Shown in pieces: positions 2,890 to 25,993 of a stretch of 25,993 nucleotides of DNA (the first letter of the stretch is position 1; each line of letters begins with the position of its first letter). The position numbers were made by a program, and so were the translations under genes. The stretch lies in UHGV virus genome UHGV-0145247; one strand, given 5' to 3'. Below the pieces are notes generated by a model. It did no database searches, had not been told where the DNA came from, and worked only from the letters and a program-made list of their open reading frames with translations. The stretch comes from a virus.

Positions 2890-2948
2890 GAGGGATGCTT
2901 CCTGCGCAAATAGCAGCCCTGTCGGGCTGGTGGTTAAGTAAAAAGATG

Positions 2949-3677
2949 TTAACGGGAAAGGTGCTGCTGTCTCAGCCAGGACACGATGATGCATGCGGGT
3001 ATCGTGACCCGATAAGCCGGACCGGTGATGTCGGAAATCATCCACGCTGAACTCAGGGCGATGGCAAGAGGACCAGCCAGAACGGAAAGAGCACGTGAAG
3101 CGACCACAACAGTTCCCCAAGTGGCAATGCCGCCCAGGGAGGTGATGACACTAGCAGACAACATCGTTGCCAGCTCGAGCGCAGCCAGCGAGGAAGTCCG
3201 GATGGCGGCCTGAACGGCGATAAGAATGAGTTGTGGCGTGGGGTTTGTCAGATCCAGATGCATATTGTGGGAGAAAGCAGCCAGCTCTTCTGGTGACATC
3301 TGATCCAAGCTTTTTTCCAGAACCTTCATCAACAGAGCAAGCTCAATGGTTTCGGTAGTACTTTTCTGGTTGTAATTCACATCAAGCTTGTCACAGACAT
3401 CAACGAGAATTTCCCGATAGGTCACGCCTTGCCCCAGCCGGACCAGGCTCGCCAGGGTATTCGCGCCGTAACGCTGAAGCTCAGCGGCTATCAGTTGCCA
3501 GTAGCGGCGATGGTCTGGTGCCAGCAGACGAAACTCCGGGGTTCCGGTAAGACTCTCTGTCCAACGAGTGTCGCCGTCTCGTGGGTCAGTGGTCAGGATG
3601 GAAATCAGCAATTGCAGTTCTTCATTGCTGCATTGGCCCAGCAGATTCAAATCAGGGTCATTACGGTAGACAGCCAT
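2949..3677 (-). CDS. Hypothetical protein (242 aa) with hydrophobic Ala/Ser/Gly-rich C-terminal region
   Basis: ORF with RBS GAGGA 7 nt upstream of ATG 3677; first gene of the WYL-regulator cluster. Confidence 0.55.
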   Translation of the reverse strand: MAVYRNDPDLNLLGQCSNEELQLLISILTTDPRDGDTRWTESLTGTPEFRLLAPDHRRYWQLIAAELQRYGANTLASLVRLGQGVTYREILVDVCDKLDVNYNQKSTTETIELALLMKVLEKSLDQMSPEELAAFSHNMHLDLTNPTPQLILIAVQAAIRTSSLAALELATMLSASVITSLGGIATWGTVVVASRALSVLAGPLAIALSSAWMISDITGPAYRVTIPACIIVSWLRQQHLSR

Positions 3678-4282: not shown

Positions 4283-5497
4283 TTAGAAGTGATGTGGTAT
4301 GATTAAAACCCCATGTTTGTCCAAAGGCGGCACTGTGAAAAATGAATTGTAAAATAAAATACATGACTCCTGATTGTGTAAGTCTATTTGGAAATAACGG
4401 GATACATACCGTTCCAGAATGTTTTGATAATAATCATGGTTTAATTTTTCTTTATTCCTAGCTCGTTCAATTATGTCTTCGTGCAGACTTGAAAATACCT
4501 CAATTAAGTCATCCTTATCCCCATTTAACATGGCATGAAAAGCAGCAGCAGCAAATAACTCATTTGCAGGACCTGCAGACAGCCAGTGACTGCTTTCAAT
4601 AGAATTAATGGACTCCCTCAAACGCCAGAGACCCAAGCGCATTGCCTGATCGTTTAAAAGTTTCAGTAATGGTGGATAAGCATAAATGTCCGTACCAAAC
4701 AGCCTGCGTGGTACACTCAGATCTGCAAAGGTCACATGTTTTACAGAGGCTAGCGCTTCCTGTATTTCATCCTGACCATATTGCATCGTGAGCGCCTTTA
4801 ATAACGTCGATTTTACAGGCAGGGGAGAACCTGCCGCTTTTATGCCGCTGAACGTTCCTCGGGTTTTGCTCACGGGAATAGTGTCCTTCATCATCCTGTT
4901 AATCAACGCAGGGGCAATAATGATGTTATCCGCTGTATTGGCCCCCCCTTTGGAATTCGGATATATGTGACATAACTCCAGCTCCAGCCAGGGTATCAGG
5001 CGTTTAATAACCTGCCCCTGTGAATCAATAACCCTTTGCCCATTTAGAGTATTGTAAGCTTTCTGGTAGTCTGCTTTGCGCTGGTACAACCGGATGAGAT
5101 CAGCAATGTCATCAGGGCTGGTGATACTTCCCAGCCCGAGGGGATTATTCTTTAGCTTGGACTCCACGTTGATCCAGTAAGAATGTTTTACCAGACTGAC
5201 AATGGCATCGTCATCTATGAGCCTTCTATCTTTATTACGATGCCCAATACAACAATACCGTTGATTGCGAGTACCAGACAGGCTAATACCACAGGGCGGG
5301 TACTGACACGTCAGATTCCACCTTTGCGCTCTTTTAGCTGCATTAGAAAGCTTACCCTGATAATGTACAGAACATAAGCGGAATTTACGCTCATCAGGTA
5401 ATTCACCAATTGAGAGCGTACAGTTATTTCTTTTACAAATAGCCATAATAAGACTCTTATCACAGTTAATCATGTTGCATGATAAATAAATAGCCAC
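4283..5497 (-). CDS. HNH nuclease-domain protein with Cys-rich N-terminus (404 aa)
   Basis: Cys pairs in first ~110 aa, then HNH-like motif ELELCHIYPNSKGGANTADNIIIAPALINR; AT-rich gene between AT-rich spacers; GTG start at 5497 without clear SD, alternative ATG at 5473. Confidence 0.6.
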   Translation of the reverse strand: MAIYLSCNMINCDKSLIMAICKRNNCTLSIGELPDERKFRLCSVHYQGKLSNAAKRAQRWNLTCQYPPCGISLSGTRNQRYCCIGHRNKDRRLIDDDAIVSLVKHSYWINVESKLKNNPLGLGSITSPDDIADLIRLYQRKADYQKAYNTLNGQRVIDSQGQVIKRLIPWLELELCHIYPNSKGGANTADNIIIAPALINRMMKDTIPVSKTRGTFSGIKAAGSPLPVKSTLLKALTMQYGQDEIQEALASVKHVTFADLSVPRRLFGTDIYAYPPLLKLLNDQAMRLGLWRLRESINSIESSHWLSAGPANELFAAAAFHAMLNGDKDDLIEVFSSLHEDIIERARNKEKLNHDYYQNILERYVSRYFQIDLHNQESCILFYNSFFTVPPLDKHGVLIIPHHF

Positions 5498-5664: not shown

Positions 5665-5898
5665 TTATGGTTGTTCGGCAATAGTAGTTGATGATGCCAG
5701 ATGACGTTTCAGCAACCACTCATCCAGTTCAGACTCAAGCCAGCCGACAGATTGCATGCCTAGGCGACGTTGTTTAGGGAATGTGGCGTCATATCGTGGT
5801 GACATGGGGTTAATCCAGTCGTAGATGGTAGAACGGGCTACGCCTATCTTGTTGACAACACTAGACATACGCAGGATTTTAATGTGTTGAGTGTTCAT
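5665..5898 (-). CDS. alpA: AlpA-family transcriptional regulator / excisionase-like protein (77 aa)
   Basis: Resembles E. coli AlpA (ATIYDWINPMSPRYDATFPKQRRLG...SVGWLESELDEWL). Confidence 0.8.
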   Translation of the reverse strand: MNTQHIKILRMSSVVNKIGVARSTIYDWINPMSPRYDATFPKQRRLGMQSVGWLESELDEWLLKRHLASSTTIAEQP

Positions 5899-6023
5899 AC
5901 CGATTTGTTCCTTGTTGGCCCTGTATGGATGGGGCTAACTTTACCGAGAGGGCAAAATGGGATCCAGATATGTACCAAAAGTAAAAAAAAACTGTGGAAT
6001 GTGACGTTTTAAGAGAGGTTGGG

Positions 6024-6740
6024 ATGACAGACGATAGTGTTCTGGATGGCATTTTTGATTCAGTAAAGAGCGAAGCTGAGCGTTTTATATCGTGCTACAG
6101 CGGTAGTGATGATGTCAGTAGTTACAATGAACTCCGTGACCGGTGCGAGAGTAAAGCAAAAGAAAAAATTAATAAATTCAAGGAGGAAGGCTGCCACATC
6201 CTGGATGATGATTTTGAATGCATGCTTTACGATGCTAATTTTTCTGCACAATGGAATGGAAAGTTTGGAACGTATCTTGCCATTGCATTCTTCTTTTACC
6301 ACTGGGGGCAGTATTGTTATTCCTCTGGGCACCGGCGTGAAGGATTGCTATTTATGGCAAGAGCAGCTGGTTGTGGTGGAGTCTGGCAGGGGGCTGGGCT
6401 ATACGCTGACCGTGTAGAGACTGCTGAATTGGCGTTAAAGAAAAAGCAAGATCATGGAAAGAAGGGAGGAGAGGCTACTGGCTTGGCTTTAGCACCCGCA
6501 CGGGATGAGTTGAAGCGGTTGCTTAAAATAAACTGCCCGGCAGAAGGATGGAAAACTAAAACTGCAGCAATCGGTGCCGTTGTAGATCAACTTGAGGTTT
6601 TTGTTAAAAAACACAAAATAAATTTGAAAACCGATAATCTTGATAATGCCATATTAACATGGTGTAAGAGATATGATGATTTACGAGACGTATTGGAGAG
6701 TTCTTTAAAAAAGAACATGAAAAATAACCGCGTGGGTTGA
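6024..6740 (+). CDS. Hypothetical protein (238 aa), AT-rich, between alpA and integrase
   Basis: RBS AGAGAGG before ATG at 6024; no recognised motif; opposite strand to flanking genes. Confidence 0.55.
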   Translation: MTDDSVLDGIFDSVKSEAERFISCYSGSDDVSSYNELRDRCESKAKEKINKFKEEGCHILDDDFECMLYDANFSAQWNGKFGTYLAIAFFFYHWGQYCYSSGHRREGLLFMARAAGCGGVWQGAGLYADRVETAELALKKKQDHGKKGGEATGLALAPARDELKRLLKINCPAEGWKTKTAAIGAVVDQLEVFVKKHKINLKTDNLDNAILTWCKRYDDLRDVLESSLKKNMKNNRVG

Positions 6741-6913
6741 TTTTACCCATATGGACATTGGGACGTTGGCATCGTGGTGAAGGAGTACATTAATTAGCCG
6801 AAATCGTGAAGTATCTGCCTATGTGCAATTCGCTTTTTAAGATGGAATCCACGCCGTCTTCATAGACGGCGGAACTTTAACTAAACTGCAACTAAACATT
6901 GTTGGTATCTTCC

Positions 6914-8155
6914 TCATCCAACGAGCCGCATTCCTTTTATCCCCTCCTCAATGATAGTTCCGCGATCTGCAGCCATCACGAAGTCAGCCCACCATTGCAT
7001 CATAGGTCGCCGCTGTTCCAGATAATCGCTGCGATTGTAAGCTCGTCGTACCTCATTTTTGTCCACATGAGCAAGTGCGGCTTCAATGACATCAGGTGGA
7101 AAACCTTGCTCATTGAGTGCTGTGCTGGCGATAGAACGCAGGCCGTGAGAAACGAGTACGCCTCCTAAGCCAGCACGCTTAAGTGCGGCATTAACTGTTT
7201 GGCTGTTCATTGGCTGGGTTGGTTTGATGCGACTGGGAAAGATAAACTCTCGGCCACCGCTGAGGGACTTCATCACTTCCAGAATTGAGATAGCCTCATC
7301 TGATAGTGGAACCGTATGGTCTCGGTTCATCTTCATTCGAGCTGCTGGAATTTTCCATTCGTTAGCATCAAAATCGATCTCATCCCATCGTGCCTCAGCG
7401 GCTTCGGCAGGGCGGGTAATGGTGAGAAGCTGCCACATGAACAAGCACCGCGTTGACATACTGATACTTGCCGTACGCATAGTCTGCATTAGCTGCGGAA
7501 GTTGATCCGGGCGGATGCTTGGCATGTTTTTCTTTTGCGGTTTCTCAAATGCTTTTCCGATATTTACACTGGGAACTGCATCAATCAGGCCTGTGTTCTG
7601 CGCATAAATCATGACTTCGTTAATACGCTGACAAAGGCGGCGAACAGTCTCTAATGCACCTCTGGCCTGAACCGGCTGAACAGCTTTAACTAGAGTATGA
7701 GCCTTAATCTCAGTGACACTAATATCACCGATTGCTGGGAAAACATCTCTCTCAAGCGAGCGCCAGATATCGTCGGCATAGTCCTCTGTTACGCTGGCTT
7801 TCTTCACATTCCACCAACGCTCGGCAACTAACAGGAAAGTGTTGGTTTTAGCCTCTTGAGAATTTCTTACCTGTTCTTTCTGATGTTCCTGAGGATCAAT
7901 GTCTTTCGCCAACAAAACTCGAGATTCAGCTCTGAGTTTACGCGCATCAGAAAGGGAGACAGCAGGGTAGGCACCGAAGCTCTGTTTGGTTCGCTGTTTT
8001 GTCAGCGGTCGATAGTAACGGAACTGCCAGAGCTTACTACCACTGGACTTGATTAATAGAGTAAGCCCGTCACCATCATACAGCTGGTAATCGGCATCTT
8101 TAGGTTTGGCGGCTTTGATTTCCGTATCGGTTAACGGCTTGGTTTTTCTTGCCAT
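6914..8155 (-). CDS. intA: Tyrosine recombinase, P4-type integrase (IntA-like, 413 aa)
   Basis: N-terminus MARKTKPLTDTEIKAAKPKDADYQLYDGDGL typical of P4-family integrases; RBS GGAG 8 nt upstream of ATG 8155. Confidence 0.9.
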   Translation of the reverse strand: MARKTKPLTDTEIKAAKPKDADYQLYDGDGLTLLIKSSGSKLWQFRYYRPLTKQRTKQSFGAYPAVSLSDARKLRAESRVLLAKDIDPQEHQKEQVRNSQEAKTNTFLLVAERWWNVKKASVTEDYADDIWRSLERDVFPAIGDISVTEIKAHTLVKAVQPVQARGALETVRRLCQRINEVMIYAQNTGLIDAVPSVNIGKAFEKPQKKNMPSIRPDQLPQLMQTMRTASISMSTRCLFMWQLLTITRPAEAAEARWDEIDFDANEWKIPAARMKMNRDHTVPLSDEAISILEVMKSLSGGREFIFPSRIKPTQPMNSQTVNAALKRAGLGGVLVSHGLRSIASTALNEQGFPPDVIEAALAHVDKNEVRRAYNRSDYLEQRRPMMQWWADFVMAADRGTIIEEGIKGMRLVG

Positions 8156-8165
8156 GGGGAATCTC

Positions 8166-8200
8166 CATGCGTTTAGGCCCAACGAAAACAATAGAGCTTT
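8166..8200. other. Perfect 13-bp stem hairpin (GGCCCAACGAAAA / TTTTCGTTGGGCC, 9-nt loop) just upstream of integrase start
   Basis: Inverted repeat read directly from sequence. Confidence 0.5.
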
Positions 8201-8451: not shown

Positions 8452-9642
8452 TTACGGCTCCTTTGAGGTTCCACCGCTGACCAGCTTGGGTCGTTTTTCA
8501 GTGTTGCCGTCATACTCCTTCAGATAGCGTCCATAATGCCTGAACAACATTTCTGGCCCTTTATGTCCCATCTGTGATGCCAGCCAGAACAGGTTAGCGC
8601 CTCGACTTATATGTCGGGTCGCGAACGTATGCCTGGTCTGGTATGGATTGCGGTACCTGATCCCAGCTTTACGTAAAGTTGGCACCCAGGCTTTCTTTCT
8701 TATCGCATCGGCACCCGCCCATGGTTTTTCTGTCTTAGGATCCTCAAAGATCGTTGCATCTTTCATAAAGGTGAAAGGCTTCTGAGAAGTCAGGGCATAC
8801 AAGGCTTCTTCGGTCAACTCAACTTTACGTGTTCCAGCTTTAGTTTTCGTGCCCTTAATTACCCCCACTACGCTGGCATTTTGCACATGCGCTGTTTTGC
8901 CGATAAAGTCGATATCGCGCCAACGGAGGGCGCAGAGTTCAGAACTACGTAGCCCGGTTTCAATTGCAAAGCGGAATATGTTTTCCCACTGCTTATTACC
9001 CGCAGCATGCAAAAGCGCTTCAACCTCGGCCGGTGAAAGCGGATCAACAATATAATCACTTTCATCCTCGGTTTTACTGCTCTGGTAGCGCGAGGCTGTC
9101 ACCAGTGAAACAGGGTTAATCTGCAATACACCATCAGTCACAGCTTCATCCAGTGCTGAGCGTAGGAATGAAAGTTGGTTCCTAATCGTCTTTAATGTCG
9201 TTTTCTGACTCTGGATCCATGTTTTTAAAGCAGCAGGTGTTAATTCGCTGGCAGGAAAAACGTGAAGTGATGCCAGAGCATTTAAACATTTCTTATATCC
9301 GCCGATTGTTGAAGGAGATAATTTTCTCGTTTCACAAATTACAAGATATTCATCGAGATAATTTTTTACCGTTTTTCCTGTTGAAGCATTACCAAATATT
9401 TTAAGTCGTGCCGAACGGGGAAAGTGTTCACCATAATTGAATGTACCACGCTCAATTTTATTGTGAATTTCGCCGAGTGTTCGCTCGGCGTATTTAAGGT
9501 TTTTGCTATTAACTTCAAGGTTTGATAAAGGTTCCCGGCATTTCACCCCCTTATAGGTAAAGGTAATATTGATAGTTTCCCCAGTACTATGTTTCCTGAT
9601 CGTTACGCCGCGCGGGAGTTTAGGCGATTTTGTCGAGCCCAT
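8452..9642 (-). CDS. int: Phage integrase, tyrosine recombinase (396 aa)
   Basis: C-terminal catalytic region (RHTFATRHISRGANLFWLASQMGHKGPEMLFRHYGRY); next to att core. Confidence 0.9.
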   Translation of the reverse strand: MGSTKSPKLPRGVTIRKHSTGETINITFTYKGVKCREPLSNLEVNSKNLKYAERTLGEIHNKIERGTFNYGEHFPRSARLKIFGNASTGKTVKNYLDEYLVICETRKLSPSTIGGYKKCLNALASLHVFPASELTPAALKTWIQSQKTTLKTIRNQLSFLRSALDEAVTDGVLQINPVSLVTASRYQSSKTEDESDYIVDPLSPAEVEALLHAAGNKQWENIFRFAIETGLRSSELCALRWRDIDFIGKTAHVQNASVVGVIKGTKTKAGTRKVELTEEALYALTSQKPFTFMKDATIFEDPKTEKPWAGADAIRKKAWVPTLRKAGIRYRNPYQTRHTFATRHISRGANLFWLASQMGHKGPEMLFRHYGRYLKEYDGNTEKRPKLVSGGTSKEP

Positions 9643-9889: not shown

Positions 9890-10060
9890 TCATAGCGGTG
9901 AATCATCCCCCAGCTTCGCCTTTAAATCGCCAGTGACAAACCAGGCTGGAATTTCTCCGGCATTATTAGAGGATCGCCCCTGCGGTGAGGTGAATGACCC
10001 ACGCACGGGAATTAGTTTGATGAGGCTGACACATCGGCCAATTTCTTCAATGGTGCGCAT
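9890..10060 (-). CDS. Small ORF (56 aa), translationally coupled to upstream gene
   Basis: ATG overlaps the stop of the 347-aa gene (TGATG), RBS GGAGG upstream; below ORF-track cutoff. Confidence 0.3.
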   Translation of the reverse strand: MRTIEEIGRCVSLIKLIPVRGSFTSPQGRSSNNAGEIPAWFVTGDLKAKLGDDSPL

Positions 10061-11103
10061 CACTTCACCTCCTGCGGGGCGGCTGCGAAGTGATTAATGG
10101 CCTTATCCCAGATTTCTTTGATGGTGGTCCAGTCAATCGGCATGGTGCTCGTCCAGGTTCCCTCGCCGCTGCAGTCGTCGCACCCTTCACCAAAACACTC
10201 ATGGCATGTCAGCGTATATTCAAGATTGAATTCCCCGAGAAGCGCTGCTTTTGCACCGTTCTCAGCGGTTAGCCTCATCGGCACCATCACGTACCCCTCT
10301 GGAATTACCGTGGAGTTGCTAGCATTTGGATGCAGAGCGCGAATCCCTTCGGCTAATTCTTCCAGGGTGGATGAATATCCGCGCTGGGCATCATTGCCGA
10401 ACTCGAACGCTCCGGTATCAGGATTAGACCATCCATGCTCGCTGTCGTATGCCTCACGCTGCTTATCTATCCATTTGGCGGCGGCTTCAATGCCATCGCG
10501 ATAGAAAGTGACTACTGGCGCTGGCTGCTCTTTGATGTGCAAGCGAGGTTCACCGTCTTTCGGCTCAGGCCATTCGCGCTGTTTGTTCACTGCCAGCTTT
10601 TCGATCATCGCCTGGGTAATCTGTTCGTCGGTGATACCGGCACGACGCTGGGCATCCCACATCAGGAATTGCATATCAGCCCACTCCGACAGGTCATCTG
10701 GTTCCGCTGCGGCCTCCATAGCCTCTTTTGCCAGATGCTTCAGTGGTCCAACAGGGCCGACATTACCGAATGTTGCCTGTGACCACTCTGAGTGCTCGCG
10801 GCGTACCTGCTCTCGGTCCTTTGCTGGTTGCGCTGGCGGATAATTTGCCAGCATCCAACTAATGACGTAGTCGTCCTTGAACCGCTCAACCGGAAATCCT
10901 TCATTCCAGTCACGGAAGTGATAGATAACTTTTGCCAGCTCAGGTTGAAGCGCCACCGGCTCGTTGTCCATTGCGGCCAGCGCCATGCGAGACAGCTCCT
11001 CAGCCTCTTCAGCTGGCAGCATTACGTTGCTTCCGGCACCGTAGGTTTCACGCCATGATTTAATTTTTTCCAGGCGCTCTCTGGTTATGGTCGATTTGGT
11101 CAT
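10060..11103 (-). CDS. Phage early protein with DUF550-like domain (Ead/Ea22-like), 347 aa
   Basis: Motif HLAKEAMEAAAEPDDLSEWADMQFLMWDAQRRAGITDEQI resembles the DUF550 family seen in lambdoid early regions (from memory). Confidence 0.5.
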   Translation of the reverse strand: MTKSTITRERLEKIKSWRETYGAGSNVMLPAEEAEELSRMALAAMDNEPVALQPELAKVIYHFRDWNEGFPVERFKDDYVISWMLANYPPAQPAKDREQVRREHSEWSQATFGNVGPVGPLKHLAKEAMEAAAEPDDLSEWADMQFLMWDAQRRAGITDEQITQAMIEKLAVNKQREWPEPKDGEPRLHIKEQPAPVVTFYRDGIEAAAKWIDKQREAYDSEHGWSNPDTGAFEFGNDAQRGYSSTLEELAEGIRALHPNASNSTVIPEGYVMVPMRLTAENGAKAALLGEFNLEYTLTCHECFGEGCDDCSGEGTWTSTMPIDWTTIKEIWDKAINHFAAAPQEVK

Positions 11104-12561: not shown

Positions 12562-13065
12562 TCAAGACAGTTGCTCCACCTTGATGCCAGCGGCGGTCAG
12601 CGCCGCTAGAAATTCGTCAACTTCATCACGCATGTATATTCCAAGCTTCTCTCCGCCGACTGTGATATGCCCCGGCCGCATCGGTTTCACGGTGACGGTG
12701 CGGGACTCCAGCTCGGCGATGCGCTCTTTTGCCACCAATAATTCAGCAGCAATTTCACGCCAACTTTCATAACTGGCCTCAAGCTTGTCCCAATCAGGGT
12801 TGAAGTTGGCAAGCTCAGACAACTGGCCTTTCAGAAACGCATTACTCTTCTGCGCCTTCTCCAGCGCCTCTGCCATCTCAGCGCCAGCCGCTTTCCATGC
12901 CTCCCACATTCCCTCAAGCTCTGAGTCGTCATCGTCAACCTTATAGCCTTCCCCATCGCGCCAGTGCGACCAGCCAAAACGCGGCGGATTGCCGTTATGC
13001 TGGGTGCGCTCCCACCACGCTTCGAATTTCTCTCTCTGCGCCAGTTCGGTGATATCAGTTGTCAT
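12562..13065 (-). CDS. Hypothetical phage protein (167 aa)
   Basis: Acidic, coiled-coil-like ORF; start overlaps methyltransferase stop (ATGA). Confidence 0.55.
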   Translation of the reverse strand: MTTDITELAQREKFEAWWERTQHNGNPPRFGWSHWRDGEGYKVDDDDSELEGMWEAWKAAGAEMAEALEKAQKSNAFLKGQLSELANFNPDWDKLEASYESWREIAAELLVAKERIAELESRTVTVKPMRPGHITVGGEKLGIYMRDEVDEFLAALTAAGIKVEQLS

Positions 13066-13790
13066 GCTGCACGCTCCCGTTTAATCACCATGCGCTCGAA
13101 TGCGGTGCAAAATATTTCCGGATCTTTTTCTACGCCTATAAACCGGCGCCCTGATTGCTGACACGCAACGCCAGCAGTCCCGCTACCCATAGTGAAGTCC
13201 AGTACTGTATCGCCATGATTGCTGTAGGTTTCAATCAGGTATTTCACAAGCGCCAAAGGCTTTTGCGTTGAATGAAGAGCTTGTTTTTGCTTATCACTAG
13301 AGAATTTCTGCACATCTCGCGGATAGCGGCTTGTTGAATCGTAAGTGACTTTTTTCAACGCCTCGCCATAGACATCAGTATTCGGCGTGCCTCTTGTTGC
13401 AGTTTTTCTGGCGTGCCCATGCGTCATCTGTGGGTTGTATGTCGGCTGCTTTCTGTAAAAAACCTCAATATTTTCATGTGCACGAAGAGGTTGTTTTTTC
13501 GCATTCAGGAAACCTGTAGCGTGTGGCTTCTCCCAAATCCACTCCGACCGCCAGTCCCGCAGATTGCTGTTAATCAGCACGCTGGTGAACGGCTGAGCGG
13601 AAAACAGCACAATAGCGGCGCTGGGCTTAGCGATGCGGTAGAGTTGCTCCCACATCAGAGCCAAGTCGAGAACAGAATCCCAGCGGCACTGAGTGGTACC
13701 GTATGGGATATCAGCACATACCAGGTCAACGGTACCGCTGGCGATTTTCGGGAATACGTCGAAGCAATCTGCGTTGTGAAGGTAGATCAT
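13062..13790 (-). CDS. DNA methyltransferase, N6-adenine/N4-cytosine type (242 aa)
   Basis: Motif IV-like DIPYGT near N-terminus and AdoMet-binding DFTMGSGTAGVA near C-terminus. Confidence 0.8.
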   Translation of the reverse strand: MIYLHNADCFDVFPKIASGTVDLVCADIPYGTTQCRWDSVLDLALMWEQLYRIAKPSAAIVLFSAQPFTSVLINSNLRDWRSEWIWEKPHATGFLNAKKQPLRAHENIEVFYRKQPTYNPQMTHGHARKTATRGTPNTDVYGEALKKVTYDSTSRYPRDVQKFSSDKQKQALHSTQKPLALVKYLIETYSNHGDTVLDFTMGSGTAGVACQQSGRRFIGVEKDPEIFCTAFERMVIKRERAA

Positions 13791-14380: not shown

Positions 14381-14511
14381 GCCGTCACCCATTCGATCAT
14401 CATGCATACGCCCCAGGTCACAGCGACTACTGCAACCCACCCGATAACACTGACCAGTGCAGCAAACCAGAGAAGGGCGCGCCGGCTGTAATTTTCAGGT
14501 TCAAAGTTCAT
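14377..14511 (-). CDS. Small hydrophobic protein (44 aa), likely membrane peptide
   Basis: MNFEPENYSRRALLWFAALVSVIGWVAVVAVTWGVCMMIEWVTA; ATGA overlaps at both ends; below ORF-track cutoff. Confidence 0.35.
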   Translation of the reverse strand: MNFEPENYSRRALLWFAALVSVIGWVAVVAVTWGVCMMIEWVTA

Positions 14512-15293
14512 TGCGCCTCCCCAATTACCCAGCGCAGAGCCTCGGCATATTCGCCGCTGGCATCTTCAAGGGCTTTAGTGATTTCCTTACGCGATTTGAT
14601 GCGCGGCTTTGCCTCACCGAGAACCTGACGCTGCCGACGGGATTTTTCATGGCCTTTGGTACCAGCTGTCGCCAGCTCGATTTCTGCCACTTTTGCCCGC
14701 TGCTCTTCAGGTGGGAGCGCGCCAAGCTGACGCGCCTGGGTAACGGTAACTGTGCCAGACTCGACCGCTTCACGAACAGCCTGGGTAGCATCGAGTAGTG
14801 ACAGCGTTGCACGGACAGTCTGAACGCTACAGCCAAACAACACCGCAAGGTCGTCCTCGTCATGACCACGATCCAGCGCGTCTGACATTTTCTTAGCTCG
14901 ACCTAATGGCGTATCAGGTCGGCGGATTTCGTTTTCGCTGACCATATATTTGGCCATTTGGTTTGCAGACCCACGCTTAACGACTCCAGGAACAAGCAGC
15001 GGTGTTTTGCCTTCTTTCAGCAGGAGCTTATTGGCTTCCAGCGTATGTTTAACGCGCTGACGACCGACAACCACACAGGTGAGCCCCTTTTCAGGGTCTT
15101 TCCAGACAATAATCGGCTCAAGAACACCCAGCTCCTTGATATTCAGCACCATCCCTTCATCGATCGGCAGATTGACTCGCTCATCGTAAAGCGGGTGGGC
15201 CTTGTCAGTGACAATATGCAGATTTTCCGGCTCGAACATCAGAACGTTTGTCTTGCCGCTGGCGCCATAAGCATCGATCGAGTTTTTAGCCAT
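14508..15293 (-). CDS. ParB-like nuclease-domain protein (261 aa)
   Basis: ParB N-terminal-domain-like segment LGVLEPIIVWKDPEKGLTCVVVGRQRVKHTLEA; RBS GAGGAA. Confidence 0.65.
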   Translation of the reverse strand: MAKNSIDAYGASGKTNVLMFEPENLHIVTDKAHPLYDERVNLPIDEGMVLNIKELGVLEPIIVWKDPEKGLTCVVVGRQRVKHTLEANKLLLKEGKTPLLVPGVVKRGSANQMAKYMVSENEIRRPDTPLGRAKKMSDALDRGHDEDDLAVLFGCSVQTVRATLSLLDATQAVREAVESGTVTVTQARQLGALPPEEQRAKVAEIELATAGTKGHEKSRRQRQVLGEAKPRIKSRKEITKALEDASGEYAEALRWVIGEAQ

Positions 15294-18916: not shown

Positions 18917-19543
18917 TCAGAGCTCGTATTGAACGCCTTTAACCACACCAATAATGACGCAGTTACCATTGATGGCGATGTTAGGATAACGGGGATTTAG
19001 CGGGACAAGAAATTTTTGCGGACCGTCTACAACCAGTTTTTTGACCGTGGCCTCGTTGGTCCCATCTATTCGTGCAACTACAATCTTTCCATGAATGGGC
19101 TCAATGTCTGGATCAACGATGACCGTTGCGCCTTCAGGAATCGTGGGCAGTCCATTAGGATTTGTCATTGAGTCTCCCTTTACTTCAAGGGCAAACGAGT
19201 TATCGCTGATGCGGAGAGACGTTTCCACCCATTTTTCGGCATCATGCAAGACATCTTCAGGCTTTGATTCAGTGAATAATCCTGCTTGCACCCACGATAT
19301 CACGGGAACTTTTCGCATCTTAGTTATTAAGTTTCCCTCAAACTCAGTGCCAAAAAGTATGTAATCAATTGATGTATTGAAGAATTTTGCTAGTTTGGAA
19401 AGAGATTCCCCTCCTGGGACGTTTACATCCTTTTCCCAATACCCAACTGCGACATCACTGACCCCACAAAACTTCCCAAGCTCTTTTTGTGAGGTTCTGG
19501 TGATTCGCCTAAGCGATTTTATTCGTTGTCCGACAGTTTCCAT
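18917..19543 (-). CDS. cI: CI-like repressor (HTH + LexA-like S24 peptidase domain), 208 aa
   Basis: N-terminal HTH (TSQKELGKFCGVSDVAVGYWE), C-terminal S24-like region (EVKGDSMTNP...GKIVVARIDG); no SD before ATG, consistent with leaderless cI. Confidence 0.85.
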   Translation of the reverse strand: METVGQRIKSLRRITRTSQKELGKFCGVSDVAVGYWEKDVNVPGGESLSKLAKFFNTSIDYILFGTEFEGNLITKMRKVPVISWVQAGLFTESKPEDVLHDAEKWVETSLRISDNSFALEVKGDSMTNPNGLPTIPEGATVIVDPDIEPIHGKIVVARIDGTNEATVKKLVVDGPQKFLVPLNPRYPNIAINGNCVIIGVVKGVQYEL

Positions 19544-20643: not shown

Positions 20644-21195
20644 ATGATGAATGAACCTGAATGGAAAGTTGATAAGCAGCCGGCATGGCTGGTGGCTGCG
20701 ATCAAAAAAACGATCACTGATTTGGACGGGGGATATGCAGAAGCAGCTGAATGGCTGGGCGTGACTGAAAACGCATTGTTTAACCGCTTACGTGCCGATG
20801 GTGATCAAATTTTCCCTCTCGGCTGGGCAATGGTCCTGCAGCGGGCTGGTGGGTCAAATCATATCGCCAATGCGATAGCGCGCCACTCGAATGGGGTCTT
20901 TCTACCGCTGGCAGATATTGAGGACGTGGACAATGCCGATATTAACCAGCGCCTGATGGAGTCCATTGAATGGATCGGCAGACATTCACAGTATCTGCGC
21001 AAAGCTACAGCTGACGGTGTTATTGACCAGGCCGAACGAGAGCAGATAGAGGAGAACAGTTATCAGGTAATGGCGAAATGGCAGGAGCATTTGACATTGC
21101 TTTTCCGTGTCTTTTGCCAGCCAGAAAAGAGTGACGCCCGCGAGTGTGCAGCTCCGGGCGTCGTGGCGAATAAATCTTTGTGTATGGAGAAATAA
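20644..21195 (+). CDS. CII-like phage regulatory protein with HTH (183 aa)
   Basis: HTH-like AEWLGVTENALFNRL; position after cro; RBS GAGGT. Confidence 0.45.
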   Translation: MMNEPEWKVDKQPAWLVAAIKKTITDLDGGYAEAAEWLGVTENALFNRLRADGDQIFPLGWAMVLQRAGGSNHIANAIARHSNGVFLPLADIEDVDNADINQRLMESIEWIGRHSQYLRKATADGVIDQAEREQIEENSYQVMAKWQEHLTLLFRVFCQPEKSDARECAAPGVVANKSLCMEK

Positions 21196-21367: not shown

Positions 21368-21547
21368 ATGCGAGAAGTTAACCGGAAGTTCAAAGACCAC
21401 TATGGCAATCCAGTCAGAGTTATCCGCTGGGAGCCTGAGACACGTCGTGTCATCTACCTGCGGGAAGGCTATTCCCACGAGTGCTTTAGCCCACTCGATC
21501 AGTTTCAACGCAAGTTCAGGGAAGTAGAGGGCAGCCATGAGCAGTAA
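21368..21547 (+). CDS. Small protein (59 aa), possibly DUF4222-like
   Basis: RBS GGAGGG 10 nt upstream of ATG; in-frame stop just upstream; overlaps start of replication gene; below ORF-track cutoff. Confidence 0.4.
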   Translation: MREVNRKFKDHYGNPVRVIRWEPETRRVIYLREGYSHECFSPLDQFQRKFREVEGSHEQ

Positions 21548-22448
21548 ATTACACGGCCTCGTATGGGAAGCATGCGCTTTCAAAGGGCTGATAATCTCAG
21601 AAATAGCGGTCATGGCTCGCCTGGCAGATTTCAGTAATGACGAAGGTGTGTCATGGCCAGCGGTAACCACTATTCAGCGACAGATCGGCGCCAAGAGCGA
21701 GAATACTGTCCGCAGTGCTATCAAAAAGCTTCAGGCTAAAGGCTGGCTGAAGAAGCAGGAACGGCGCGTGGGCGGAAAGAATAATTCGAACGTTTATAAA
21801 CTCAATGTTGACATGCTGGAACGTGCAGCAGCTGAAGCAAAAATTTTCTACGCAACGCCACGTGAACAATCAAAATTTGATGCCTCAGAATTTGAGGGTT
21901 CAAAATTTGATGGGTCAAATTCTGATGCCTCAAATAATGGGTCTGTACCCCCTCAAATATTGCGGGAGGACCCCTCAATGGTTGAAGGCGATCCGTCATT
22001 AGATCCGTCATTAGATCCGTCATCTAAAAAACCTTCTTGTCGGGCTCCTGCGGAACCCGACGATAAGCCGGATCCTGAAGTTGTTATCACCGATAACGCG
22101 ATCGAAGTTCTGGCACACCTGAATCTGGTCAGCGGTTCCCGTTACCAGAAATCTAAGACCTCACTGGAGAACATTCGCGCCCGCCTCCGCGAAGGTCATA
22201 CCGTTAGCGACTTGAAACTGGTAATCGACGTTAAGCATGAGCACTGGCATGGCAACGACGAGCAATACCAGTACATGCGACCCGAGACACTTTTCGGCCC
22301 TAAAAAATTCGAGGGATATCTGCAAAGCGCTATCCGCTGGGATGCTAAAGGCCGCCCGCCAAAGGAGTCGTGGGACAAAACCAGACCGCGGGATGTTAAT
22401 TCAATTAGTCCAGTACAAACCACAATTCCACGGGGGTTCCGGGGATGA
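21537..22448 (+). CDS. Phage replication initiation protein (lambda O-like), 303 aa
   Basis: N-terminal HTH-like region, internal iteron array at DNA level, position after cII-like gene. Confidence 0.7.
   Translation: MSSKLHGLVWEACAFKGLIISEIAVMARLADFSNDEGVSWPAVTTIQRQIGAKSENTVRSAIKKLQAKGWLKKQERRVGGKNNSNVYKLNVDMLERAAAEAKIFYATPREQSKFDASEFEGSKFDGSNSDASNNGSVPPQILREDPSMVEGDPSLDPSLDPSSKKPSCRAPAEPDDKPDPEVVITDNAIEVLAHLNLVSGSRYQKSKTSLENIRARLREGHTVSDLKLVIDVKHEHWHGNDEQYQYMRPETLFGPKKFEGYLQSAIRWDAKGRPPKESWDKTRPRDVNSISPVQTTIPRGFRG
21870..21944 (+). repeat. Five tandem 15-bp iterons (consensus TCAAAATTTGATGSS), putative phage origin
   Basis: Units at 21870, 21885, 21900, 21915, 21930; degenerate copies near 21953 and 21975. 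Confidence 0.6.
21993..22025 (+). repeat. Tandem 12-bp repeat CCGTCATTAGAT (2.75 copies)
   Basis: Direct tandem repeat adjacent to iteron array (encodes DPSLDPSLDPSS). Confidence 0.6.
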
Positions 22449-22903: not shown

Positions 22904-23085
22904 AGAAGATTTTGATAAGTCTCCGGCGCCTTGTGCGTTTGCATCACTGGCGTTACTGGTGGCAGCACGACGTTATTTTTCGCAGAAAATACGCACTCCT
23001 CAGAGATGACCTTTTCAGCTTTGATCGCCGTTACTGGTTACTGAGAGCACTTGTTGATGCTGATCAGCGCAGGGGAAAACTATGA
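22891..23085 (+). CDS. Small Arg/Trp-rich ORF (64 aa, GTG start)
   Basis: RBS GGAGG upstream of GTG; stop overlaps ATG of Dam gene (ATGA). Confidence 0.3.
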   Translation: MLRLKKILISLRRLVRLHHWRYWWQHDVIFRRKYALLRDDLFSFDRRYWLLRALVDADQRRGKL

Positions 23086-24035
23086 GTCAGGAAGTACAAG
23101 AAGCTATGACCGCAGAAGAGCAAACTTTGACAAAAACCATCAACCCTTATTGCCTGGCACTTGAGGAACTGCGCCAGCGCAGTGCGCATTATTTGAAAGA
23201 GGTTGGCGATCAATGGCGTACCCCTGATCTGCTGTTCTGGGGCGTTAACGCTATGTTTGGCCCGTTGGTACTGGACCTGTTTGCAGACGACAGCAATACA
23301 AAATGTCCGGCATGGTATACCGCTGAAGATAATGCGCTGACGCAGGACTGGTCTGGTCGTTTGGTAGAACTCGTAGGAGCGGCCTTTGCTAATCCGCCGT
23401 ACAGCCGTTCGCAGTACCATGAAAAACAAGCCATCACTGGCATGACTCATATTATGAACTATACCGCCGAGCAGCGTGAAAAGGGTGGTCGTTACATTTA
23501 CCTCGTGAAGTCAGCAACAAGTGAAACATGGTGGCCGGAATATGCCGATCACATCATGTTTATTCGTGGTCGTATTGGATTCGATCTCCCAACGTGGTTT
23601 GTGCCGGCCGACGAAAAGCAGAAGCCCACCAGCGCATTCTTTGCCGGGGCCATTGCGGTATTTGATAAGACCTGGCGCGGTGAACATTTTAGCTATATCG
23701 ATCGCGTTGAGCTGGAAGCAAAAGGGCGCGCAAGTATGGCGCTGGCTGAGTTTGCTGCAGGAAAATTCCTGTCACCAGTTTCGCCAGTTCAGTCTCCTGA
23801 AGTGATCATCCCTGATGCTGTTGCATCATTGGCTGAGCCTGAATCCCGGATCTGGCCACTGGAAGTTGGACTCGTCTTTGGACAGGTACAAGGCGCAGAG
23901 GATCTGGAGTTCTCCCAGCAGAACAAGCTGAAGGCCCACATTAACCAGTTGTGGCTGGAGCGCGTGCCCACCAGCGAAATCATCACCGTTGCTGGTGGGC
24001 TGGTCGGCAGCATGAGGGGGACCGCTCATGCGTGA
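23082..24035 (+). CDS. Phage-type DNA N6-adenine methyltransferase (Dam family), 317 aa
   Basis: WRTP motif near N-terminus and NPPY catalytic motif (AFANPPYS). Confidence 0.8.
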   Translation: MSQEVQEAMTAEEQTLTKTINPYCLALEELRQRSAHYLKEVGDQWRTPDLLFWGVNAMFGPLVLDLFADDSNTKCPAWYTAEDNALTQDWSGRLVELVGAAFANPPYSRSQYHEKQAITGMTHIMNYTAEQREKGGRYIYLVKSATSETWWPEYADHIMFIRGRIGFDLPTWFVPADEKQKPTSAFFAGAIAVFDKTWRGEHFSYIDRVELEAKGRASMALAEFAAGKFLSPVSPVQSPEVIIPDAVASLAEPESRIWPLEVGLVFGQVQGAEDLEFSQQNKLKAHINQLWLERVPTSEIITVAGGLVGSMRGTAHA

Positions 24036-25993
24036 GATTATTGTCGATAATTTCGCTGGCGGCGGTGGAGCCAGTACAGGTATTGAACTGGCAATAGGGC
24101 GCAGTGTTGATATTGCGATTAACCACGATGTTAACGCCGTTGCTATGCACCGCACTAACCATCCCGACACGCTTCACTATTGCGAAAGTGTGTTTGATGT
24201 ATCCCCATTAGCCGCTACCAGTGGCAAGCCTGTCGGCCTGGCATGGTTCTCGCCTGACTGTCGTCACTTTTCTAAAGCGAAAGGTGCTAAACCAGTAGAG
24301 AAAGCTATTCGAGGGCTGGCATGGATCGTCATTCGTTGGGCGCTGGATGTTGGCCCGCGAGTCATGATGCTGGAAAACGTCGAAGAGTTTAAAACGTGGG
24401 GCCCGTTACTCGCGGCAGAAATGCGCCCGGATCCGGCACGCATCGGTGAAACTTTCAATGCATTTGTCGGGATGCTTACCACCGGTATTCCAGCAGATCA
24501 TCCTGCACTGGTGGAGTGTTGCGAGTTTCTGGAGTTTTCACCGGATAGCGAGCAGGCCAAGCGCTTAATTGCCGGGCTGGGTTATGTCGTCGATTTTCGC
24601 GAGCTGCGCGCCTGCGATTATGGCGCGCCGACCATCCGTAAGCGGTTCTTCATGGTGATGCGCCGGGACGGGAAACCGATAGTCTGGCCGGAAGCCACGC
24701 ACGGGGATCCGAAGTCTGCCGCCGTGCTGGCGGGCCAGCTTGAGCCGTGGCGTACAGCTGCGGAATGCATAGACTGGTCAATCCCAGCGCCGAGCATCTT
24801 CGGTCGCAAAAAGTCACTGGCAGAGAATACGCTAAAACGGATTGCCCGCGGCATTCAGCGCTTTGTTATCGAAAGTGCTTCGCCGTTCATCGTGAAGTGC
24901 AATCACACAACGACACGCGGCAAATACGACTGTTTCCGGGGACAGGCGCTGGATGATCCGCTACAGACGATTACGAAAACCCACGGCTACGCAATTGCGG
25001 TACCTCATCTGACAAAATTCCGAACTGGAGCTACCGGGCAGGAAGTCACCGATCCGTTGCCGACGGTGACGGCCGGTACCGCAAAACGCCCGGGCGGGAA
25101 TGGTCACGCTCTGGGTATTGTTGAAGCAGAGCTGGCGCCGTTCCTGGCTGGCAATGGCGGCAGCGAGTACCAGGCTAAACCACGCCCGCTCGATAAACCC
25201 GCTCACACCATCCTGAAAGAATCGCGCGCCTGTGTCGTCGCTCCGGTTATCGCCCGGCAGTTCGGCGCCAGCATCGGACACCGGGCGGATGAGCCTAGCG
25301 CAACAATCACCGCGGGCGGCGGAGGTAAATCGCAGCTGGTTGTGCCGACGCTCATTCAAATGGGATACGGGGAACGGCCAGGACAGGCACCTCGTGTGCC
25401 AGGACTGGATAAGCCGCTGGGCACCGTTGTGGCTGGTGGCGGGAAACATGCTGTAGTTGGTGCGTTCCTGGCAAAACACTACGGAGGGAATTATCAGGGC
25501 GCTGGCGTGGGGCTGGATGAGCCAGCGCATTCAGTAACGACTGCCGATCACCATGCATTAGTCGCTTCTCATCTGGTTAAGCTGCGCGGAACCTGCCGCG
25601 ATGGCCAGCGAACTGACGAGCCGATGCCGACTATCACTGCCGGTGGCCAGCATGTAGGGGAGGTTAAAACGACCCTGGCGGTCGAGGACTATGACGAAGA
25701 GCGAGCGCAGCAGGTGCTGTCGTTCCTGCAGGAATACTGCGGAGAGGAATGCACCGGGCTGGTGGAAATCGGCGGAGTGACTTACCGCATCGTTGATATC
25801 GGCATGCGCATGCTGCAGCCGCACGAGCTCTACCGGGCGCAGGGCTTTCCGGAGTGGTACATCATTGACCAGGATTACCGCGGCGTGAAGTACGCGAAAG
25901 ATAAGCAGGTCGCGCGCTGTGGCAATGCCGTTCCGCCACCGTTCGCCGAAGCGCTGGTACGCGCCAACTTACCCGAAATGTGCGTGAACAGAG
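24028..25993 (+). CDS. DNA cytosine-5 methyltransferase, 3'-partial (>=655 aa, runs off window)
   Basis: C5-MTase motifs I (NFAGGGG), IV-like (SPDCRHFSKAKG), VI (ENVEEF), VIII (DYGAPTIRKRFF), X (GNAVPPPF); long repeat-rich variable region. Confidence 0.85.
   Translation, partial: MREIIVDNFAGGGGASTGIELAIGRSVDIAINHDVNAVAMHRTNHPDTLHYCESVFDVSPLAATSGKPVGLAWFSPDCRHFSKAKGAKPVEKAIRGLAWIVIRWALDVGPRVMMLENVEEFKTWGPLLAAEMRPDPARIGETFNAFVGMLTTGIPADHPALVECCEFLEFSPDSEQAKRLIAGLGYVVDFRELRACDYGAPTIRKRFFMVMRRDGKPIVWPEATHGDPKSAAVLAGQLEPWRTAAECIDWSIPAPSIFGRKKSLAENTLKRIARGIQRFVIESASPFIVKCNHTTTRGKYDCFRGQALDDPLQTITKTHGYAIAVPHLTKFRTGATGQEVTDPLPTVTAGTAKRPGGNGHALGIVEAELAPFLAGNGGSEYQAKPRPLDKPAHTILKESRACVVAPVIARQFGASIGHRADEPSATITAGGGGKSQLVVPTLIQMGYGERPGQAPRVPGLDKPLGTVVAGGGKHAVVGAFLAKHYGGNYQGAGVGLDEPAHSVTTADHHALVASHLVKLRGTCRDGQRTDEPMPTITAGGQHVGEVKTTLAVEDYDEERAQQVLSFLQEYCGEECTGLVEIGGVTYRIVDIGMRMLQPHELYRAQGFPEWYIIDQDYRGVKYAKDKQVARCGNAVPPPFAEALVRANLPEMCVNR

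Follow-up and report, generated by a model that had tools for sequence, protein, structure and literature searches.

Tandem target recognition domains (TRDs) that confer multiple specificities have been documented for C5-cytosine DNA methyltransferases of Bacillus phages (PMC8936443; PMC12707154), and a 2025 review names multispecific enzymes of this class from Bacillus phages only (PMC12707154). In M.SPRI, M.Phi3TI, M.Rho11sI and M.H2I of temperate Bacillus phages, and in M.(phi)BssHII, a phage-borne orphan with a single catalytic domain carries several short units with a TL motif, arranged one after another between motif VIII and motif IX; entire units set relatives apart, and these enzymes have no cognate restriction endonuclease. 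The TRDs of the Bacillus phage enzymes span 38-51 aa. The monospecific enzymes M.HhaI, M.HaeIII, Dcm and the methylase of prophage CP-933R (3g7u) have one recognition domain and the canonical PC dipeptide; the recognition core of HhaI is made up of a strand, a Gly-rich loop 1 and a loop 2 with T250-L251. A further phage enzyme, the DNA cytosine C5-carboxymethyltransferase CmoX (8yf3), has SPPC, an Arg350 that binds the carboxylate, the partners CmoA and CmoY, and a single short recognition region for a GC motif (PMC12783734).

The methyltransferase gene described here closes a window of 25,993 nucleotides, the whole stretch of viral DNA that was analysed. Like the Bacillus phage enzymes, its product is a phage-borne orphan with one catalytic domain and tandem TL-type units between motifs VIII and IX, with a conserved last unit before motif IX (EPAFTVNTIDRHG there, EPLHTVTTKDRFG in the present family), and its relatives likewise differ by whole units; the units, at 32-48 aa, are also of similar length. 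The two groups differ in motif IV (SPDC here, SPCQ there), in motif VIII (TIRKR here, QNRER there), in a segment of 80 aa that follows motif VIII and is specific to the present family, and in unit number: the Bacillus sequences have 2-4 TL-type motifs, the present protein has seven units and its relatives reach 12. The gene also lies in a Gram-negative lambdoid prophage next to a Dam-like gene, and its specificities are predicted where those of the Bacillus enzymes are documented. A preliminary description of this DNA had suggested alignment against known multispecific methyltransferases as a check; tandem TL-type units prove to be shared, whereas similarity between individual units is not significant. 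Judged from sequence, the relationship to SPR, phi3T, rho11s and H2 is thus one of analogous architecture, not of membership in the same subfamily. With the monospecific enzymes, the protein shares the fold and the motif order I-X but has seven modules in place of one recognition domain and an Asp before the catalytic Cys; one module resembles the HhaI recognition core, as known from its structure, in make-up.

An orphan C5-methyltransferase gene in a lambdoid early-right operon

The gene overlaps an upstream Dam-like gene by 8 nt, and the same pair is found in relatives:

23082..24035, plus strand: Dam-like N6-adenine methyltransferase gene (Pfam PF05869, 1.7e-42; PHROG 111)
24028..25993, plus strand: C5-cytosine DNA methyltransferase ORF with 655 codons inside the window and no stop before its end

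The gene order cI-cro-cII-O...Dam-C5 methyltransferase-RusA...Q is that of the early-right operon of a lambdoid prophage (Klebsiella-type), in which the C5-methyltransferase gene has a Dam-like methyltransferase, a LexA_DNA_bind protein and RusA as neighbours. No restriction gene adjoins it. A megablast search against complete E. coli genomes gave no match, and a tRNA scan for an attachment site found none. Close relatives, 656-660 aa at full length, stop five codons past the window end and finish in EEQAA, so the ORF is nearly complete, with about five codons cut off. The preliminary description, which asked for the full gene beyond the window, was right that the gene runs past the end, although little of it is missing.

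The assignment to the C5-methyltransferases, also made in that description, is supported by several comparisons. The ORF matches Pfam PF00145 with an E-value of 6.8e-19 (68.9 bits against a curated cut-off of 22) as well as PHROG DNA methyltransferase families, while the NCBIfam model TIGR00675 scores 44.8 bits, under its cut-off of 100.65. HMMER alignments to 3g7u and DNMT1 take in motifs I, VIII, IX and X, and motifs I, VI, VIII (with two Arg), IX and X (GN[AS]V) occur in the order expected for this class. An AlphaFold2 (AF2) model built with a 48-sequence alignment has the two-domain C5-methyltransferase fold, with a catalytic core at pLDDT 85-95 that Foldseek matches to DNMT1, 3g7u, HhaI and HaeIII. 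By class, the product is an orphan, phage-borne C5-cytosine DNA methyltransferase with predicted activity.

Catalytic motifs and an unusual motif IV

The catalytic motifs lie on both sides of a long central region. Their conservation was judged on two family alignments, A1 (the more diverse) and A2:

24052..24069, plus strand: motif I, FAGGGG (AdoMet binding), aa 9-14; F9 and G11-G14 invariant in the family
24250..24261, plus strand: motif IV, SPDC, aa 75-78, with the predicted catalytic Cys78; HMMER pairs SPDC with PPC of 3g7u
24373..24381, plus strand: motif VI, ENV, aa 116-118; E116, N117 and V118 invariant
24628..24645, plus strand: motif VIII, PTIRKR (QxRxR-type, Q replaced by T), aa 201-206; aligned with PTIRTR of 3g7u
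25807..25851, plus strand: motif IX, RMLQPHELYRAQGFP, aa 594-608
25921..25938, plus strand: motif X, GNAVPP, Asn kept, aa 632-637; G632, N633, V635 and P637 invariant

Position and alignment agree with the earlier placement of motifs I, IV, VI, VIII and X. In motif VIII, T202, R204 and R206 are invariant in A1, and in A2 both Arg residues are invariant and T202 is nearly so. The unusual SPDC form of motif IV, likewise pointed out before, holds up across the family: D77 is at least 90% conserved and the other three residues (S75, P76, C78) never vary, such that Asp stands directly before Cys where Pro is usual and the Pro is shifted one position upstream. Since the variant is family-wide, it is presumably functional.

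Seven degenerate modules between motifs VIII and IX

The interval between motifs VIII and IX covers 387 aa, close to the variable region of about 400 aa proposed earlier. A conserved family-specific segment (aa 207-288) follows motif VIII, and the module array itself takes up no more than 255 aa (aa 289-543), with seven degenerate modules of 32-48 aa that each combine a beta-strand, a Gly-rich loop and a (D/E/K)PxxT(I/V)T core ("TL-type" loop). They are followed by a segment delimited by AF2 and by comparison with relatives:

24892..24993, plus strand: module 1 (type D), core DDPLQTITKTHG, core P at nt 24958
24994..25089, plus strand: module 2 (type F), core TDPLPTVTAGT
25090..25233, plus strand: module 3 (type G), core DKPAHTILKES, preceded by a longer Gly-rich stretch
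25234..25329, plus strand: module 4 (type E), core DEPSATITAGGGG
25330..25449, plus strand: module 5 (type A), core DKPLGTVVAGGG
25450..25557, plus strand: module 6 (type C), core DEPAHSVTTADHH
25558..25656, plus strand: module 7 (type B), core DEPMPTITAGGQH
25660..25755, plus strand: strand-plus-helix segment (EVKTTLAV...QEYCGEECT), aa 545-576

All six repeats listed in the preliminary description are real (core P at nt 25054, 25198, 25294, 25414, ~25522 and 25621); the first of the seven copies, with core DDPLQTITKTHG, had been overlooked.

The tandem repeat is far beyond chance. The best off-diagonal self-alignment scores 137, compared to 34.3 +/- 5.5 in shuffled sequences; the motif [DEK]P..[TS][IVL] occurs seven times against 0.136 expected, a count reached in 0 of 20,000 shuffles; and an HMM of any six modules scores the remaining one above all 200 of its shuffles. 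Pairwise identity among the modules is only 9-41%, and a nucleotide repeat search of 24800-25800 found short chance matches only, pointing to an old repeat at the protein level. The lack of a nucleotide-level repeat rules out recent duplication or an assembly artefact.

Modules recur as cassettes in a large family

The family comprises 2552 clusters at 50% identity (E<1e-30) from prophages of Klebsiella, Salmonella, Enterobacter, Yersinia, Pseudomonas and Vibrio, actinobacteriophages and others. Its proteins are 434-1113 aa long and carry 1-12 modules each, and the more modules a protein has, the longer it tends to be (r = 0.61). Module types were set by greedy clustering at 65% and then checked by blastp-short against reference modules; single-linkage clustering at 60% identity was dropped, as it merged 1035 modules into one cluster.

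Discrete module types recur, in differing order, among proteins with no more than about 50% identity between their cores; module 6 (type C) is one of them. The window order is D-F-G-E-A-C-B, that of a common 695-aa allele D-F-G-E-A-C-I-B, and that of Klebsiella phage Kp4866-6 D-F-G-E-C-I-B, with more extensive rearrangement in P0290 (D-F-G-A-U-E-C-B-H), P0288 (D-F-U-E-C-A-B-H) and P0124 (D-A-C-E-B-H). Relative to the 695-aa allele, the window lacks one type I cassette of 105 nt (35 codons) after nt 25566, and module 5 (type A) is missing from Kp4866-6 as a 117-nt in-frame gap; both indels coincide exactly with cassette borders and keep the reading frame. Type B (module 7) is constant and is present even in the minimal members (434-437 aa), which have two modules, B+L, to which members of 456-461 aa add one of three alternative cassettes upstream. 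In most relatives, the slot filled by the strand-plus-helix segment in the window protein holds the last module (type H, L or N). Across diverged hosts the module types hold 60-100% identity. By these comparisons, modules behave as independent cassettes that are gained, lost and reordered in frame at their borders.

Purifying selection on the modules is as strong as on the catalytic core, with dN/dS of 0.063 in the module region and 0.048 in the core; at such low values, no cassette is decaying. Compared to phage 5 LV-2017, dN/dS is 0-0.12 for each of the modules with enough comparable codons. Module A, which is absent from LV-2017, has a dN/dS of 0.06 relative to P0001, and for module C the one comparison of three in which dS was not saturated, with Kp4866-6, gives 0.042. 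The dS pattern is mosaic, a sign that the 3' half of the gene recombines often. Natural alleles that differ by exact in-frame loss, gain or reordering of cassettes remain intact and under purifying selection.

Profile and structure comparisons with known recognition domains

The last module type maps onto PF00145 from position 254 onward, where the model has its conserved TRD element immediately ahead of motif IX. The family HMM pairs this module with the conserved EPAFTVNTIDRHG before motif IX in SPR, phi3T, rho11s and H2, at a score of ~0 bits, and gives weak core matches to the same four sequences (i-E 0.005-0.3 in a four-sequence search). Searches of these four sequences with module HMMs were not significant (~0 bits or below), and the comparison with the Bacillus phage TRDs leaves the short (D)EPxxT(I/V)xT core alone in common. 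A 50-sequence module profile searched against the PDB matched no C5-methyltransferase TRD; the sole match, to TFIIS at E 0.94, is a chance match. In the window protein, aa 243-555 are predicted at pLDDT <50, as is the extra cassette of a relative, P0389, so AF2 is uninformative on how the cassettes fold. The strand-plus-helix segment is modelled with a helix at 557-571 (pLDDT ~56-60). In the window allele, the canonical TRD slot beside motif IX is a helical segment that lacks a TL motif, which counts against a multispecific reading.

From position and make-up, we infer that the cassettes are TRDs. This had been the reading of the preliminary description, and it is strengthened by the cassette behaviour, the purifying selection and the last module in the TRD slot; the absence of a significant match to Bacillus phage TRDs or solved structures, and the low AF2 confidence over the array, weigh on the other side.

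A candidate multispecific anti-restriction methylase

We propose, with a probability of roughly 0.6, that the enzyme is a multispecific anti-restriction methylase, analogous to the SPR and phi3T enzymes of Bacillus phages and outside their subfamily. Since it carries seven recognition-type cassettes where ordinary enzymes carry one, several DNA motifs may be methylated at once. One catalytic domain would take the cassettes in turn, each or most of them steering methylation to a different short DNA motif. Produced from the early-right operon in lytic growth, the enzyme would shield progeny phage DNA from many host type II restriction systems simultaneously, and recombination at the conserved cassette borders would add, drop and reorder cassettes, retuning the set of protected motifs. 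Multispecificity, independent action of the cassettes, silence in the lysogen and the anti-restriction role are what we infer from the features above.

A broader version of this proposal is more tentative, its odds falling a little short of even. It describes a very large phage family in which one C5-methyltransferase core would be combined with 2-12 independent recognition cassettes of 30-40 aa, shuffled by recombination out of dozens of conserved types, with the window enzyme methylating up to seven motifs. No natural library of minimal, portable recognition cassettes for cytosine methylation would be larger, and temperate phages that infect Enterobacterales and many other bacteria would have in this family a main means of evading restriction.

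A literature search returned no described enterobacterial multispecific C5-methyltransferase and no biochemical or methylome data on any family member. Bisulfite methylomes of 14 K. pneumoniae strains contained only CCWGG and MTCGAK (PMC9684165), a result that fits silence in lysogens and lends no positive support to multispecificity. Because PacBio sequencing detects 5mC poorly and the family genes are probably silent in lysogens, such enzymes would escape standard methylomes. Multispecific C5-methyltransferases have so far been treated as a Bacillus phage curiosity; if the proposal is true, the design is widespread, estimates of phage escape from restriction in clinically important hosts would change, with a bearing on host-range engineering for phage therapy, and the cassettes would be small natural modules for re-targeting cytosine methylases. 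The family would also offer a tractable system for the unsolved structural question of how a single catalytic site can serve several recognition domains.

Alternatively, the modules might build a single DNA-binding domain in which their strands form one extended sheet, with one, relaxed or near-nonspecific specificity and with module number tuning affinity or processivity. We regard this as unlikely, though the model of P0389 points in its direction, as the modules there share a sheet, each supplying one long strand (310-318, 342-351, 374-379, 382-393). Two modules are kept even in minimal members, with none found that has fewer, none of the modules matches a TRD whose specificity is proven, and non-specific phage methylases exist that act on adenine (PMC5778455). 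However, module order is not conserved, the extra cassettes are predicted to be disordered and outside the sheet, and although the modules share only 9-41% identity with one another, each type is conserved in distantly related proteins, the pattern of distinct specificities and not of a structural repeat.

Somewhat more doubtful is the idea that one or a few modules are active, for example the constant module B, and that the others are pseudo-domains, spacers or a reservoir for switching specificity by recombination. The retention of B even in minimal members would be expected from this, as would the mosaic dS values, and inactive pseudo-TRDs were reportedly found in Bacillus phage enzymes by Lange and colleagues in 1991. 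However, both the low dN/dS in every module with enough comparable codons and the 60-100% identity of module types in diverged hosts are unlike the behaviour of unused sequence. A TALE-like arrangement, in which successive modules read successive bases of one long site, is judged unlikely, given the strong dissimilarity of the modules and the lack of a conserved order.

Transfer of a group other than methyl, with SPDC reflecting a different chemistry as in CmoX, is very improbable and largely rejected: CmoX candidates are defined by SPPC and Arg350, neither of which was recognised here at the level of motifs, seven modules stand in place of one short recognition region, motif X keeps its canonical form GNAVPP with the invariant Asn, and the window and two related loci (L007 and L008) hold no cmoA- or cmoY-like gene. 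In relatives that carry inteins, these sit exactly at SPD|C, directly before the predicted catalytic Cys.

The C5-methylase gene and its catalytic motifs

Translation of frame 1 gives 655 open codons from nt 24028 (plus strand) to the window end. The earlier identification of a C5-cytosine methyltransferase was borne out by a match to PF00145 (C5-cytosine DNA methylases; 68.9 bits against a Pfam cut-off of 22), by matches to PHROG DNA methyltransferase families, and by HMMER alignments to 3g7u (the prophage CP-933R methylase structure) and DNMT1/MET1, which cover motifs I, VIII, IX and X. Nearly the whole gene is present, since its closest relatives, from Klebsiella phage Kp4866-6 (96% nucleotide identity) and P0002 (a 660-aa metagenomic protein, 98% identical), both stop five residues past the window end (…CVNREEQAA).

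Conserved motifs of the window protein
aa 9-14, FAGGGG
aa 75-78, SPDC (motif IV)
aa 116-118, ENV
aa 201-206, PTIRKR (motif VIII)
aa 594-608, RMLQPHELYRAQGFP (motif IX)
aa 632-637, GNAVPP

The unusual SPDC was correctly noted and is family-wide: S75, P76 and C78 never vary across two alignments, one of 40 and one of 48 diverse relatives, and conservation of D77 is 90% or higher. HMMER placed P-D-C over P-P-C of 3g7u, so Asp stands where Pro normally precedes the catalytic Cys. Relatives of ~940-1110 aa (P0133, P0173, P0174, P0222, P0263, P0242, P0181) carry an intein, a Hint domain plus LAGLIDADG homing endonuclease, exactly between SPD and the catalytic Cys ('...WFSPD|CFPAGT...VVHN|CKHFS'). 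The equivalent site in the window, which has no intein, is aa 77/78 (nt 24258/24259). The catalytic Cys is thus the +1 extein residue, and the insertion marks the motif IV site as functionally critical. The intein accounts for the extra length of the ~1000-aa members, a cause other than module number.

A diverged tandem repeat between motifs VIII and IX

The preliminary description had claimed six or more degenerate repeats in a variable region of ~400 aa. All six listed positions bear the core (D/E/K)PxxT(I/V), which occurs a seventh time further upstream, at nt 24958. The ~400-aa figure holds for the motif VIII-IX interval (387 aa) but not for the modules, which span only aa 289-543. The seven modules (32-48 aa each, together nt 24892-25656) share a plan of hydrophobic strand, Gly-containing loop and (D/E)PxxT(I/V)TAGG. 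They are preceded by a conserved family-specific segment (aa 207-288, the first 82 aa past motif VIII) and followed by a strand-plus-helix element and then two conserved strands (aa 545-593).

Modules of the window protein
aa 289-322, module 1
aa 323-354, module 2
aa 355-402, module 3
aa 403-434, module 4
aa 435-474, module 5
aa 475-510, module 6
aa 511-543, module 7

The best off-diagonal score in self-alignment of the region was 137, compared with 34.3 ± 5.5 in shuffles. The core motif occurred 7 times against 0.136 expected, a count reached in 0 of 20,000 shuffles, and each module outscored all 200 of its own shuffles with an HMM built from the other six. With pairwise module identities of just 9-41%, and no repeat in a DNA-level search of the array region, the protein repeat is old and diverged. 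The repeat observation is thus confirmed and extended.

Cassette-like behaviour of the modules

Module types were assigned by greedy clustering at 65% identity, with key cases verified by blastp-short against reference modules.

Module orders in the window protein and relatives
Window protein: D-F-G-E-A-C-B
P0001, the common 695-aa Klebsiella/Raoultella allele: D-F-G-E-A-C-I-B
Phages Kp4866-6 and 5 LV-2017: D-F-G-E-C-I-B
P0116: D-F-G-E-C-J-B
P0279: D-F-G-U-E-A-C-I-B
P0290: D-F-G-A-U-E-C-B-H
P0288: D-F-U-E-C-A-B-H
P0295: D-F-G-U-E-C-A-B-H
P0124: D-A-C-E-B-H

Comparison of the nine rows shows type A before E, after E or after C. Aligned to P0001, the window gene has an in-frame gap of exactly 105 nt (35 codons, type I) following nt 25566 and Kp4866-6 one of exactly 117 nt (type A), each coinciding with module borders. 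Nucleotide identity between the window and P0001 is 97-100% across most of the 5´ two-thirds, with 91% in the initial 90-nt block, and falls to 76-88% around modules C and B. The dS against the 695-aa allele (window 24028-25993 versus 6001-8088 of locus L007) is 0.065 in the core and reaches 0.8 or is saturated in modules C and B. Both measures mark the gene as a recombinational mosaic. Minimal members of 434-437 aa retain two modules, B then L; in those of 456-461 aa an additional cassette, drawn from three alternatives, directly precedes B. In most of the family the constant C-terminal pair is B followed by H, L or N; the window allele retains B, with the strand-plus-helix segment in place of H/L.

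Do the modules act as recognition domains?

In Bacillus phages, tandem recognition domains confer several specificities and have an anti-restriction role (PMC8936443; PMC12707154); a 2025 review names no other phages (PMC12707154). The architecture here matches that of multispecific phage methylases, and the proposal that the modules are target-recognition domains of a multispecific enzyme is partly supported by our analysis. Judged from sequence comparison, the population behaviour of the cassettes is as would be expected of independent recognition units.

Selection also bears on this reading. Against phage 5 LV-2017 (about 80% nucleotide identity), dN/dS was 0.048 in the core, 0.063 in the module region and 0.065 in the C-terminal part, and 0 to 0.12 in the five modules giving estimates. 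Module A, missing from LV-2017, gave 0.06 in the comparison with P0001. Module C yielded a single estimate, 0.042 against Kp4866-6, dS being saturated in the other two comparisons. The modules are thus constrained like the catalytic domain, which counts against decaying pseudo-domains. It is possible that only some cassettes are active, but this is disfavoured by the uniformity of purifying selection. A single repeat-built domain of single or relaxed specificity is a less likely alternative and fits poorly with module types that are conserved, dissimilar and reorderable.

Structural comparisons bear on the recognition-domain reading as well. The HhaI recognition core comprises a strand (227-232), a Gly-rich loop (233-240) and a loop (250-257) beginning Thr250-Leu251, and we take one module of the window family to present the same succession of elements. 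In the AF2 model of P0389, a 456-aa relative (mean pLDDT 78, pTM 0.81), modules B and L form long strands (310-318 and 342-351) that join two conserved strands (374-379, 382-393) running into motif IX. The pLDDT was below 50 across the entire window-protein array and for the extra cassette of P0389, which could reflect misalignment of cassettes in the input or real flexibility.

Module HMMs had no significant match to the Bacillus phage SPR, rho11s, H2 and phi3T enzymes, and in sequence the window enzyme falls outside the SPR/phi3T subfamily. A PDB search with a 50-sequence module profile returned nothing relevant. The position of the last module speaks for a recognition domain: in relatives, its '…NEPLHTATAKPRFG' core is where the C-terminal match to the Pfam C5-MTase model (positions 254-321 of 324) begins. 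The family HMM places this module over 'GEPAFTVNTIDRHGVA', ahead of motif IX in the four Bacillus phage enzymes, with a score of ~0 bits, an alignment that is consistent but short of proof of homology.

Family size and spread

An exhaustive profile-free search yielded 8239 representatives (50% identity) at E ≤ 0.001 and 2552 at E ≤ 1e-30, of about 400 to 1113 aa. An iterated module HMM found 1-12 modules per representative, module number correlating with protein length (r = 0.61). Word-indexed searches gave at least 8000 candidates; among the matches listed, named sources include Klebsiella, Raoultella, Salmonella, Enterobacter, Citrobacter, Yersinia, Serratia, Pectobacterium, Dickeya, Shewanella and Vibrio. 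By tblastn the family is present in 348 phage records, including Citrobacter phiNP, Aeromonas, Vibrio, Rhodobacter RcapNL, Roseburia Jekyll, Pseudomonas F116 and many Gordonia and Mycobacterium phages. In the literature searched, no description of such a cassette architecture was found for this methylase family.

Prophage context and likely role

In the window, an island bearing a P4-type integrase lies ahead of a lambdoid prophage.

Features of the window
55-876, minus, DUF932 (left-hand island)
2212-3120, minus, WYL-domain protein (left-hand island)
2949-3677, minus, DUF3944 (left-hand island)
6914-8191, minus, P4-type integrase (Arm-DNA-bind_3)
8452-9642, minus, prophage integrase (Arm-DNA-bind_2)
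10060-11103, minus, dATP/dGTP pyrophosphohydrolase-domain protein (PF04447), prophage early-left region
13062-13790, minus, N6/N4 methylase (PF01555, N6_N4_Mtase), early-left operon
14508-15293, minus, ParB-like
18917-19543, minus, CI-type repressor
20644-21195, plus, CII-like
21537-22448, plus, O-like replication protein
23082-24035, plus, Dam-like N6-adenine methylase (PF05869)
24028 onward, plus, C5 methylase

The 8-nt overlap with the Dam-like gene (24028-24035) suggests translational coupling, and the gene pair recurs in relatives L007 and L008. Two related loci continue with a LexA_DNA_bind protein, RusA, a Q-type antiterminator and another N6/N4 methylase. With the Dam-like, C5 and one or two PF01555 genes, these phages encode three or four DNA methylases. 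No restriction gene was found next to the C5 methylase in the window or two related loci. Because the gene sits downstream of the replication genes, we infer that it is expressed as a delayed-early lytic gene and is silent in the lysogen. For 14 K. pneumoniae strains, bisulfite methylomes report CCWGG and MTCGAK as the only 5mC motifs (PMC9684165), which would be compatible with such silence if those strains carry the gene.

Several further observations were made. The GC content of the C5-methylase gene is 58.1%, against 50.6% in the rest of the prophage. Of the 779 positions in the PHROG 116 profile, only those from 206 onward match the C5 enzyme, hinting that fused versions may exist elsewhere. 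In related prophages a further PF01555 gene lies downstream of the Q antiterminator (L007 12870-13949). The deposited phage 5 LV-2017 annotation (KY271399.1, 5815-7962) places the start of this gene 59 codons further upstream, within the gene before it, giving 715 aa; conservation of the start in all relatives suggests that the annotated start is too early. The same record lists an 85-aa 'putative DNA methyltransferase' as a CDS of its own (5735-5992), which is the tail of a Dam-like gene. The match to Enterobacteria phage mEp237 (NC_019704.1, 36084-36437; 81% identity) is confined to the final 118 aa of the window protein and falls in a gene annotated DNA methyltransferase that may be either a remnant or a methylase with only the C-terminal block in common.

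A tRNA gene search of the whole window found none. The two tyrosine integrase genes (6914-8191 and 8452-9642, both minus) are 260 nt apart, which implies tandem insertion of two mobile elements. The left-hand island, in which ORFs 4283-5497 and 5994-6740 matched no Pfam family, may serve in defence or antirestriction.
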